A stretch of DNA of 64,000 nt from a virus. The notes under the pieces were generated by a model. It was not told the DNA's origin, ran no database searches, and was given only the letters and a program-made list of their open reading frames with translations. Position numbers and translations under genes: made by a program. This document shows positions 60,013-62,960 of the stretch, in pieces. The number at the start of each line of letters is the position of its first letter. Position 1 is the first letter of the stretch. The DNA lies in the IMG/VR virus record IMGVR_UViG_3300035698_014446, positions 1 through 64,000 of that record; one strand, 5' to 3'.

Positions 60013-60459
60013 CGGAGAAAAAATGGCAAGGGTAACTAACTGTTCCACAAAATGTATATATCGTTTAGTTTGTGAGGTGGACGGGTATATAGATAAATTG
60101 GTTACTGGTTAAGATGGAAGTAATCAATGGTTAGTACATATAGTATTTCGGAATAATTGTGTAGCAATTCGAGAATCTGCTTTGTTTCGTTAGAAAATAA
60201 AGTATGATTCGAGAATATTTTCAACCTTAAAAGGTGTATTTTACGTTCTATAAGGTATATTTTTATATCTCATATACGTTCTAATATATCTTTATACCCA
60301 TTTATGTTGAAAATATTTGTACTCCAGTTATAGTTTTATTATTGCCTACATATATATATACTCAATGTTGACCCGGTATTTGTCAATATTCAGCACCGTC
60401 CGTTCTCTTACCCCGGTCCCGGCATCTGCGCGGCTGAGTCTGCGCCGCCGCCCGGCTTC

Positions 60460-60835
60460 CCGCCCGCGCGCTCCCCGTCCGGCGCGCGCCCGCGCTGCTC
60501 TGTGCGCATACGTCTAGCGCGCCTCGGTGCGATGCACGACTCGGCGCGCTGGTCTTCCCCCGCACCTGTCCGGCGCGCCTCGGTGTGGGGTCTGGCTGGG
60601 CGCGCCGGTCCGCCGTCGCCGCCCGTCCGGCGCGCCCGCCTTCCGTGCGCGCTTGGGCGCGCCGGTCACTTGTTCAAGGTGTCTCCTCGCGCGCTCCGGG
60701 TTGGCGCTCCAATCCGTGTCTCGCGCGCCGCCCTGCCAATGCCGCCTGCGCCAGCCGGGTAGCCCTGCCGTCCCCACCAGCTGAGCACCGCTAACCTGAA
60801 CGCACCAACCGGACCCCCGCCAATCGGGCGCGCTC
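60460..60835. repeat. GCGCGC-core iteron-like array
   Basis: About 12 GCGCGC cores, many spaced 27-35 bp; extended copies TCCGGCGCGC, TGGGCGCGCCGGTC, GCGCGCCTCGGTG. Confidence 0.7.
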
Positions 60836-61709
60836 TGTTGGGAAAAACCAGCCAAGCCGAAAAAAGGCGGGTTGGCAAAACAAAAAGCCAAGCCAAGCCA
60901 AACCATACCCCCGCTCTCCACCAACCACGCACCCCCCGCCAGCGCAAGCGGGCACGAGGAAATGCTACACGCCAAGGCGAAAAACCAGCCCCCACCGGGA
61001 AAAGCTAGCCGGGAAAAGCCACACCCGGTTACGCAAAGCCAGCCGTTGGGACGAAAAGCCAGCCTTTGCCAGCAAAGCCCCCGCTGAGGAAACGCGCCAA
61101 CCGAGGCAGAGAGCCACTAAACCGGGTGAAGCCCCACGGAAAAGGGGCCGCCGCACCCACACCCATAGGGCCGCCGCACCGACGCAAACACCCCCGCCGC
61201 ACCAACACCATCGCCCCCCGCCGCAACCCCGCCCAACAGACCGAGAAGCACCCACCCGCGCCAACAACGCCCGGCAAAGCGAAACGGAAACACAAAACCC
61301 GAGAGCCGAGGCCGAGCGATAAGGCCGAGCAACAAGGCTGAACCGCCAAAGCGGGTTAAGTTGTGTGGCGTCCGCACCACGCCGCTCCACCGCACGGGAA
61401 GCCGCGCCCGGGGCCAAGAATCACCGGGGCGTCGCCCCCACCTCGACCGCGCCAACGTAGACGGGAAGCCAAAGGAAGGGCCACGCCGAGGTCGAGGACA
61501 GGGCAACACACCAAGACGGGCGCAGAAATGTGGTCCGCTCGACACATCGCGTAGTCCCGACACTACGCCACCGGACCGCGCACCCCCTCTCCTGGCCTCC
61601 CGTGAAGGGTACGCGCTCTGGCACGCGGGTTGCTCTTTTTTAGGTGGGGGCCGCCCACCGGGCGGCTCCCGCCGCCCCCCTGTCGGGGGCGGACCACGAA
61701 TCGGGGCCA

Positions 61710-61747
61710 CCCGTCCCCACGAGTCGGGCAGAATAGGAGCACCAACC
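61710..61747 (+). promoter_or_regulatory. Conserved early-gene leader (copy 1 of 4; others near 62357, 63194, 63611)
   Basis: Hairpin followed by CAGAAYAGGARCA starting exactly 19 nt before ATG in all four copies. Confidence 0.75.
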
Positions 61748-62221
61748 ATGACCACAAAACAAACGAACGAAGAAAGGGCCGCCGCACACCGTGCCGCCGC
61801 CACCGAACACGAAGCCCGTGCTGCCGGACCCGCCACAGGAGGCCGGACCGACAACCACGAAGCCCGCGCCGCCGAACACCGGGCCGCCGCCCAAACACAC
61901 ACAGCAGCCGCCGCCGCACAACGAACAGCAGCCGCACCGGCAACCAGCACCGAGAAAAAGTGCACCGACGCCAACGCCGCCGACGTCACAACGACACACG
62001 CCACCGACGCCACGCTCGCCGCCGCCGACGCCCGCAACGGCGTACCGGCAACCAGCACCGAACAAGCCGCCGCCGGAGCCGCCGCCGAAGCCGCAGCGGC
62101 GCAGAACGAAGCCGAGCGCCAGACGGACCGGGGTCGCCCCGACCATGCCGCTCGCGCCCGGACCGAAGCCGCCGAAGCGCACGATGCAGCAGCAGCACAT
62201 CACCGCACCGCCGCCGAGTAG
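61748..62221 (+). CDS. Ala/Thr/His/Glu-rich protein built almost entirely from T-free codons
   Basis: AGGAG RBS in the conserved leader; paralog at 63650. Confidence 0.7.
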   Translation: MTTKQTNEERAAAHRAAATEHEARAAGPATGGRTDNHEARAAEHRAAAQTHTAAAAAQRTAAAPATSTEKKCTDANAADVTTTHATDATLAAADARNGVPATSTEQAAAGAAAEAAAAQNEAERQTDRGRPDHAARARTEAAEAHDAAAAHHRTAAE

Positions 62222-62390
62222 CACAACAGCCCCGCCCCTCGGCCAGCGAGCCGGGGGGCCGTCGGGCCAGCCCCCGCAACAGCGGGGGCGAGCCCGGCGC
62301 GACCGAGCGACCCGCACAAGCGGGAAGCCGACGACGCCAAACGGGACCAGTCCGGACCCGACCAAACCGGGCAGAACAGGAGCAACGATC

Positions 62391-62960
62391 ATGGGAACCA
62401 GACAAAGCAAGAACAGCACAGGCCGCAAGGCCACAGAGGCCAAAACAGGAACCGCAACCCCCAACACGATCAGCAAGGCCACGCCGCCGAGCGCACCCGC
62501 GCCGACCCCCGCCGAAACCACCGTGCCCACCTCATCGGTCGTCGATGTCCGCGACCTCTCAGTTGCCGAGCTTCGACTACTGCTGACAGAGGCCAAAACA
62601 CGCGAAGCTCCCGCCAAGGCCGCAGCCAAAGGACAGGCTAAGCTCGCCAAACTCCGGACCTATGCGGTCCGGCAGCGGGCGTGGGCCGAGTCGCAGACTG
62701 CCAAAGCTAGCACGGCGTGCGACCGGGCCGACAAGGCCGAGGCCGCACTGGCGACCTACGAGGCCAAGTTGGGCATCGACCCCGCGACGGAGGCCGAAAT
62801 CGCCGCGACTCTCGCCGCGCTGATCGCCTCCGGGCGAGTCGTACAAGTCGATTCGTCCTCTCTCGTCGGGCCAGAGCCGGAGGGGACCGAGGCTGAGACC
62901 GCAGTCGCCGACGTCGAAACCGCCAAGACCGACGACAAGGCCGACTCCGCCGCCGCGTAG
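62391..62960 (+). CDS. Hypothetical early protein (Ala/Thr-rich, helical core, acidic tail)
   Basis: Conserved leader + ATG 62391; GC3-biased frame. Confidence 0.75.
   Translation: MGTRQSKNSTGRKATEAKTGTATPNTISKATPPSAPAPTPAETTVPTSSVVDVRDLSVAELRLLLTEAKTREAPAKAAAKGQAKLAKLRTYAVRQRAWAESQTAKASTACDRADKAEAALATYEAKLGIDPATEAEIAATLAALIASGRVVQVDSSSLVGPEPEGTEAETAVADVETAKTDDKADSAAA

Follow-up and report, generated by a model that had tools for sequence, protein, structure and literature searches.

The 64,000-nucleotide (nt) stretch analyzed here, the window, corresponds to bases 1-64000 of the 92,205-base phage record IMGVR_UViG_3300035698_014446 in IMG/VR, and near its right-hand end lies a GC-rich block whose plus strand is nearly devoid of thymine (T) at the head of a putative early operon. 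From left to right, the last upstream gene (59812-60012) is followed by an AT-rich spacer (60100-60390, ~25-30% GC), a left arm with an array of GC-only palindromic boxes (60391-60800) and a plus-strand right arm that holds a T-poor, A/C-rich non-coding spacer (60801-61550), a promoter with an exact sigma54 consensus (P1, 61619-61633), a leader (61710-61747) and the genes A1 (61748-62221, 157 amino acids [aa]) and B1 (62391-62960, 189 aa). No credible gene was found in 60013-61747, where no open reading frame (ORF) has a Shine-Dalgarno (SD)/ATG start context.

The hand counts of the earlier note, made from the letters of this DNA, proved exact: 20 A in 60421-60780, 21 T in 60841-61320 and 20 T in 61741-62520, for which the binomial probabilities against the A:T ratio of the adjacent plus-strand genes are 2e-10, 2e-17 and 4e-28, respectively. 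GC content jumps from ~30% to ~70% at 60390 and returns gradually to normal between 63.2 and 65 kb, and 300-nt intervals with less than 7% A or T are confined to 60376-63275 in the whole 92-kb genome. When only intervals with 62% GC or more are compared, 26 of 49 in the block show such depletion versus 2 of 704 in 80 related phage loci, so that the 3-4% T is not due to high GC alone. Two traits are superimposed here: GC is high from end to end, and T in particular is avoided on the sense strand.

The T-poor sense strand to the right of ~60800 also encompasses non-coding DNA, as had been claimed. The spacer at 60801-61550 contains T at 0.04 and C at 0.39, versus 0.24 and 0.17 in ordinary plus-strand DNA, and its A (0.32 versus 0.35) and G (0.24 versus 0.24) are close to ordinary values; T is swapped for C. 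Between about -800 and +800 relative to P1, each 100 nt contains 0-8 Ts, except in the core promoter (22); the number rises afterwards. In coding DNA, sense-strand T averages 0.259 (standard deviation 0.046) over 122 ORFs and drops to 0.030 in A1, where T occupies 1%, 3% and 5% of codon positions 1, 2 and 3 and A stays at 26%. The fourfold-degenerate sites of A1 comprise 24 A, 64 C, 13 G and 5 T, compared with 40-70% T/(A+T) at such sites in later genes, and amino acids with T-requiring codons account for 3% of A1 versus 26% of the downstream gene A2. The Ts of the A1 start and stop codons and of the promoter T run are kept. Further along, the T-poor intergenic spacer at 62222-62390 (plus strand, 4 T in 170 nt) carries GC hairpins and the leader of B1; B1 itself has 9.8% T with its first 130 nt nearly T-free, and the GC-rich, hairpin-filled spacer behind it (62961-63232, plus strand, 16 T in 273 nt) ends in the leader of gene C (63233-63493, plus strand), from whose first base on the composition is normal.

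The depletion had been described as a mirror image around ~60800. AT skew does switch at ~60780-60800, but GC skew remains negative (C>G) to the left and right of this point, and the arms are not true reverse complements in composition: T makes up 17.5% of the left arm, but A makes up 32% of the right arm. The apparent mirror is the junction of the box array (T>A) with the T-avoiding part.

The left arm (410 nt, 77% GC, 29 A) has palindromes packed more densely than any other part of the genome, the palindrome count giving 12 GCGCGC and 4 GGCGCGCC. Its boxes (GCGCGC / GGCGCGCC), which recur roughly every 57 nt and have inverted arms of 18 nt, include 13 of the 16 genomic GCGCGC sites and all four GGCGCGCC sites. 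Two of the other GCGCGC copies sit immediately upstream of the candidate small terminase gene (terS), in a GC-rich, A-poor stretch with a GCGCGCGC box (52870-52960) that shares 85% identity over 26 nt with 60482-60505. On the basis of these copies and this stretch, the sequence suggests that the GCGCGC-type box is an operator-type motif serving two control regions, and the left-arm boxes are probably protein-binding sites of the operator type. An RNA fold of the left arm was no better than that of shuffled sequences (z -0.69), the same was true of the right-arm spacer (z +0.68), and Rfam matched nothing in 59500-64000. The AT-rich spacer next to the left arm contains sigma70-like hexamers at 60307-60334 and a (TA)n run near 60349-60362, and an AT-rich TATA run with a GC hairpin (53048-53090) is found after the element upstream of terS.

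Sigma54-type promoters and a recurring leader

The exact sigma54 consensus TGGCAC-N5-TTGC, with the -24 GG and -12 GC elements correctly spaced, occurs only three times in 92 kb, always on the plus strand and within 5.8 kb: at P1, at P2 (64408-64422) and at P3 (67354-67368). Each site is followed by TCTTYTT and has a conserved T run, and a control search with the reversed pattern returned 1+1 sites at no more than one mismatch. P1 lies within an A-poor stretch (61576-61695), and in 60000-62000 no further sigma54-like site was found on either strand. An alignment places an inverted repeat, TGT-N12-ACA, at the same position at all three promoters; at P1 this candidate activator site occupies 61529-61546 (plus strand), ~90 nt upstream. 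Since neither PF00158 (bacterial enhancer-binding proteins) nor PF04552 (sigma54) has a match in the phage, sigma54 and its activator would have to be supplied by the host. P2 and P3 have no comparable T-poor stretch downstream, and the later genes are not T-poor.

The leader of A1 (plus strand) consists of a 4-5-bp hairpin with an ACGA-type loop, followed by CAGAAYAGGAGCA (SD) and then ATG. This arrangement of hairpin, CAGAAYAGGAGCA and start codon precedes six early genes, GC-rich ones and those of normal composition alike, at 61710-61747, 62353-62390, 63195-63232, 63612-63649 and, on L003, whose position 4408 is genome position 64408, at L003:4462-4499 and L003:4895-4932. The stems covary, with CCCG/CGGG, CCGG/CCGG, GGACC/GGTCC, GGGT/ACCC and CCAG/CTGG pairings.

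A diverged relative retains the T-poor order

A search with the promoter pattern uncovered a 5.9-kb viral contig (L090) that carries a sigma54 promoter. Its portal, terL and terS genes lie on one strand and are followed by ~1 kb of non-coding DNA, the sigma54 promoter, the same leader motif with GGTCATTGCGACC-type hairpins at the corresponding place, a gene with EHHRRAA-type repeats that is homologous to A1, and a B-family gene. Downstream of its promoter, the Ts per 100 nt number 5, 11, 4, 3 and 7 and then 12-21, and at fourfold sites T amounts to 3/68 and 6/72 in the early genes versus ~25% in the late genes. Upstream lie an array of palindromes and direct repeats with T>A (3561-3740) and then a T-poor spacer (3741-3900, 6.9% T). 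L090 thus has its box array, T-poor spacer, promoter and T-poor first genes in the same order, the sequences themselves are not conserved, and T is replaced mostly by G in L090, unlike the C of the phage studied here. Because a diverged relative retains both order and avoidance with a different replacement base, T avoidance appears to be under selection. We conclude that the block is very probably a conserved and selected T-avoiding head of a sigma54-driven early operon that sits beside an operator-like box array; in this view it comprises the operon's control region and first transcription unit.

The conserved order also counts against a single mutational process and against a relic of a donor genome. 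The former came into consideration because the spacer looks like the product of T-to-C conversion, as 2-aminoadenine (Z, see below) deaminating to G on the template would turn sense-strand T into C; a purely mutational origin is insufficient, as L090 uses mostly G and essential Ts are kept. Avoidance of UV-induced thymine dimers was ruled out as well, since the template strand stays T-rich.

The evidence for a donor relic comes from B1, the GC-rich paralogue of B2 (genome 65444-66052, normal composition; 41% identity, E 4e-30). The B family has ~10 members in public metagenomes, divided into Ala-rich and Lys/Glu/Ile-rich subgroups, and B1 is closer to the Ala-rich metagenomic proteins P0007, P0008 and P0010 (51-54% identity) than to B2. 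In the conserved B domain, B1 differs from B2 by an overall move from AT to GC (A to C 40, A to G 34, T to C 16, T to G 15). Both observations would fit a mosaic block that was taken over from a relative of high GC and whose composition is a leftover of the donor without a function of its own. We nonetheless consider such an acquisition improbable: high GC by itself so rarely entails this depletion in the related loci, the promoter, the layout of the activator site and the leader are of the phage's own types, the right-hand border is gradual, and L090 displays the same T gradient with another replacement base.

Other homologue searches yielded little. The phage collection contained no near or distant DNA matches; single-sequence searches of viral contigs with the 86-aa and 189-aa proteins found no relatives; and the 80 loci of TerL relatives held no comparable block, the closest ones being fragments that end short of the region. 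A B-family profile retrieved only L090 from viral contigs, only the twin of L090 and one further contig (L092, an AT-rich marine-sediment contig whose B-family gene has ordinary composition) from metagenome contigs, and nothing from genome contigs, and an A-family profile retrieved essentially self matches only. Searches of PHROGs and Pfam with A1, B1, C, A2 and the gene D product gave nothing useful. A1 consists of 37% Ala with EHRAAA-type repeats, and B1 is predicted to form a single long, confident helix with disordered ends. A2 (63650-64144, plus strand) shares EHR-AA motifs with A1 and is a possible distant relative, the pairwise match not being significant (E 0.91).

The block belongs to a circularly assembled phage genome

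The ends of the record share a 127-nt repeat located within the DNA polymerase gene (polA), and when the overlap is removed, leaving ~92,078 bp, an 845-aa frame crosses the junction. The assembly is therefore circular, and the contig ends are not ends of the molecule. Genes on the minus strand run from ~78.5 kb, round the circle, to 52.9 kb and include those for PolA, a DnaB-like helicase, a gp32-like protein, RtcB, PurZ and tail and head proteins as well as terL (50948-52303, minus strand; Pfam PF04466 Terminase_3, 1.7e-41) and the adjoining candidate terS (52303-52860, minus strand). Genes on the plus strand run from ~53.2 to 78.5 kb, and the T-poor block lies inside this plus-strand module. 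A 139-aa ORF elsewhere in the genome (79758-80177, minus strand) matches only the TSCPD / C-terminal part of B12-dependent ribonucleotide reductase.

The same DNA was found in salt-lake metagenomes from 12 studies, and continuity across samples was judged from assembled Logan contigs of three metagenome runs, X1, X2 and X3. A contig from X1, the probable source run, covers 60166-63699 and bridges both the GC jump at 60390 and the skew flip at 60800, an independent X3 contig covers 60350-60850 and an X2 contig covers 60718-61122. Thus 60390 is crossed in two runs (X1 and X3) and 60800 in all three, and a chimeric join of the GC block is ruled out. Given these bridging contigs, the occurrence of the same hairpin/SD leader inside and outside the GC-rich part and the paralogy of B1 and B2, the GC-rich block is native to the phage.

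The X1 contig has two peculiarities. Its depth is 12.7 versus 4.4-8.2 in adjacent AT-rich contigs of the same run, which could reflect GC- or Z-related library bias, a module common to several strains, or a repeat. It also has an extra AT relative to the record in the (TA)n run at 60349.

Genome ends, origin and restriction sites

The skew flip had led to the proposal that ~60800 marks the joined physical ends of the genome, or an origin, and that the first-injected DNA may thereby be invisible to restriction. An element acting at the DNA level, in or around a fixed end, an origin or a packaging site, would account for several features of the locus. The arrays could then serve as iterons or as sites for the terminase, with the first-entering DNA kept free of restriction targets like the left end of T7, which the layout of AT-rich stretch, repeat arrays, early promoter and first gene resembles. 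Iteron-like repeats are indeed present beside the AT-rich 60100-60390, in the form of five AAARCCAGCC copies (60844-61064; a total count reached in 0 of 100 shuffles) and 23-nt tandem repeats (61133-61225); the homologous block of L090 is ~1 kb from terS; and the X2 and X3 contigs over 60350-61122 have ~2x the depth of their neighbors, a weak signal confounded by GC.

The placement of ends or an origin at ~60800 nevertheless found no support. Contigs cross 60800 in X1, X2 and X3, although metagenomes also contain concatemers and assembly collapses repeats, and the assembly closes into a circle with its overlap in polA. Aligning the contigs marked no start or end points of molecules, a feature that contigs are unable to reveal. 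The block lies 7.5 kb from terS/terL rather than beside them, and TerL belongs to the Terminase_3 family, whose characterized members package by headful. Cumulative GC skew has its extrema at ~53 kb and ~78.5 kb, tracking gene orientation, and at 60.8 kb only the AT skew flips, over no more than ~2 kb. Sharp flips in composition thus need not mark genome ends.

The prediction that restriction-type sites are scarce fared better, in one arm. Six-base palindromes number 1 in 480 nt and 3 in 780 nt in the T-poor segments, or 2-4 per kb, versus ~17 per kb in the flanks, but the left arm is the opposite, being packed with palindromes. Compared with controls, A/T-containing palindromes are present at the level expected from composition, whereas GC-only ones are rarer than in GC-matched DNA: counts of GC-only palindromes of 4 and 6 bases in the right arm are 34 versus 56, 0 versus 14.3 and 0 versus 5.5 expected, the expectations for the two zeros being 14.3±4.0 and 5.5±2.2, with an observed/expected ratio of ~0.5 in control phage DNA of 65% GC. 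L090 has 1 GC-only palindrome versus 7.2 expected. The restriction-avoidance reading therefore holds in part, as palindrome avoidance is real in the right arm only. Taking the evidence on ends, skew and palindromes together, we regard an end, origin or packaging element as an unlikely explanation of the block.

A PurZ-type enzyme and the template strand

A possible reason for T avoidance emerged from a 384-aa gene (genome 85426-86580, minus strand) whose product matches the PurZ proteins of phiVC8 (6FM1, 1e-52) and S-2L (7ODX, 8e-39) far better than any PurA (~1e-17) in the PDB. The P-loop motif of this PurZ-type protein is GSTGKG, the PurA counterpart being GDEGKG. Neighboring purZ are an adenylate-kinase-like gene, a dUTPase-fold gene, the DnaB-like helicase and RtcB genes and a gene for a 98-aa protein with a weak MazG match (E 0.0018). 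Since the phage encodes a PurZ-type enzyme, the A of its DNA is probably replaced by Z, and the remark that A sits on only one strand acquires a different meaning: if virion DNA carries Z for A, a T-free sense strand entails a Z-free template.

Effects of Z on transcription have been described. A single Z reportedly produced blocks of up to 92% with T7 RNA polymerase and human Pol II, and Z-containing templates gave 35-85% less protein in an Escherichia coli cell-free system (PMC10786293, citing Tan 2022). Sigma factors are reportedly sensitive to A-to-Z changes (PMC8342488).

We tentatively propose, with somewhat less than even confidence, that T is avoided to provide a Z-free template strand for the first transcription by the host. 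The injected DNA would carry Z in place of A, the T-free sense strand would leave the template without Z, and the first genes on the incoming DNA could be transcribed fast by the RNA polymerase of the host, although Z in the template slows or blocks polymerases in vitro. GC-only boxes would be read alike whether or not A is replaced, and paralogues of normal composition, B2 with certainty and A2 tentatively, lie downstream in the operon. GC-only sites would moreover be the sole restriction-type sites that Z leaves unprotected, which fits their depletion in the right arm. A fuller version is more doubtful, namely that a Z-DNA phage has recoded the head of its early operon to be nearly free of the modified base on the template and combined it with sigma54 promoters and GC-only boxes that are independent of adenine recognition, as a "start-up" region that boots a modified genome in a host with unmodified DNA.

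Several observations weigh against a Z-free template as the reason. T-poor DNA also covers ~800 nt ahead of P1 (~450 nt ahead of the promoter in L090), a search for a promoter that would drive transcription of this upstream DNA found none, and the left arm is not explained by the mechanism. T-poor sequence is absent from P2, P3 and the later genes although Z would be present throughout the phage DNA, so the polymerase must cope with Z anyway. The presence of Z is itself predicted from the gene content. The best NCBIfam model for the 384-aa protein is PurZ NF038379, whose cut-off of 300 bits the score of 214.8 does not reach. No HD-type DatZ was found among the purZ neighbors, the part of the genome in which HD domains were sought. 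Finally, no GC-rich T-avoiding early block was present in three characterized PurZ phages, phiVC8, Bm1 (bases 1-50000) and DMU1. In Bm1 (L095:45130-45708, minus strand), the single T-poor interval, 300 nt with 3% sense-strand T, is produced by a Lys/Glu/Ala-rich C-terminal tail, so short T-poor intervals can arise from low-complexity proteins alone.

A U-poor mRNA would predict an identical sequence pattern. Selection would then act on the first early transcripts, perhaps including a long leader, to evade premature termination, or attack by endoribonucleases that depend on U or AU (RNase E-type decay, toxin or abortive-infection RNases), so that the first proteins could build up from a promoter that is weak and needs an activator. 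The avoidance of T extends to synonymous as well as non-coding transcribed positions and is kept in L090, and since a U-poor RNA needs no Z, it accommodates both the PurZ phages that lack such a block and an L090 of whatever PurZ status. It would, on the other hand, protect only the first ~1 kb, the later early and late mRNAs having normal U; it leaves the T-poor DNA upstream of the promoter unaccounted for; and it names no nuclease or defense target. We think it rather unlikely that U-poor RNA is what is selected, in either the decay or the termination form, and we keep the Z-free template as our working explanation. Fully base-substituted phages still need host enzymes in the first minutes of infection, a phase that for Z genomes is largely unstudied. 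If true, a Z-free early template would make it directly testable how strongly Z impedes bacterial RNA polymerase and would help in designing Z-DNA templates. Should Z prove not to be the cause, two natural, nearly U-free mRNAs conserved in two phages would still need explaining.

Comparison with known systems

At the left end of T7, with the early promoters A1-A3 and the first gene, 0.3/Ocr, the first-entering DNA is expressed before the remainder meets restriction. The block resembles this region in its repeat arrays and spacer, early promoter(s) and small first genes, and in a first kilobase that is poor in restriction-type palindromes. It differs in that an end is unsupported here, the promoter is of the sigma54 and not the sigma70 type, and the A1 protein is not an acidic DNA mimic; T7 is moreover not known to avoid a single base on one strand, the outstanding feature of the block.

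With the Z-genome phages S-2L, phiVC8, SH-Ab 15497 / DMU1 and Bm1 (PurZ/DatZ/MazZ/DpoZ), the phage shares a PurZ-clade enzyme with a Ser-Thr P-loop signature encoded near replication genes. Unlike them, it has no HD-type DatZ among the purZ neighbors, only a weak MazG candidate, and dUTPase-fold and adenylate-kinase-like genes beside purZ, and its T-avoiding early block has no equivalent in phiVC8, DMU1 or the first 50 kb of Bm1. As in phages that avoid restriction sites, GC-only palindromes are under-represented, both in the right arm and in L090, but the avoidance is local instead of genome-wide, and these same palindromes are enriched in the adjoining left arm.

A parallel for a transcribed stretch nearly free of one RNA nucleotide, where the polymerase does not require or encounter one base, is the G-less cassette, a laboratory template for in vitro transcription, which is an engineered tool whereas the block is natural. 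The papers searched contain no description of a natural U-less or template-A-less early gene block. If selection has stripped one base from one strand of the kilobase that is transcribed first, this would represent an adaptation of a new type, a recoding for template chemistry.

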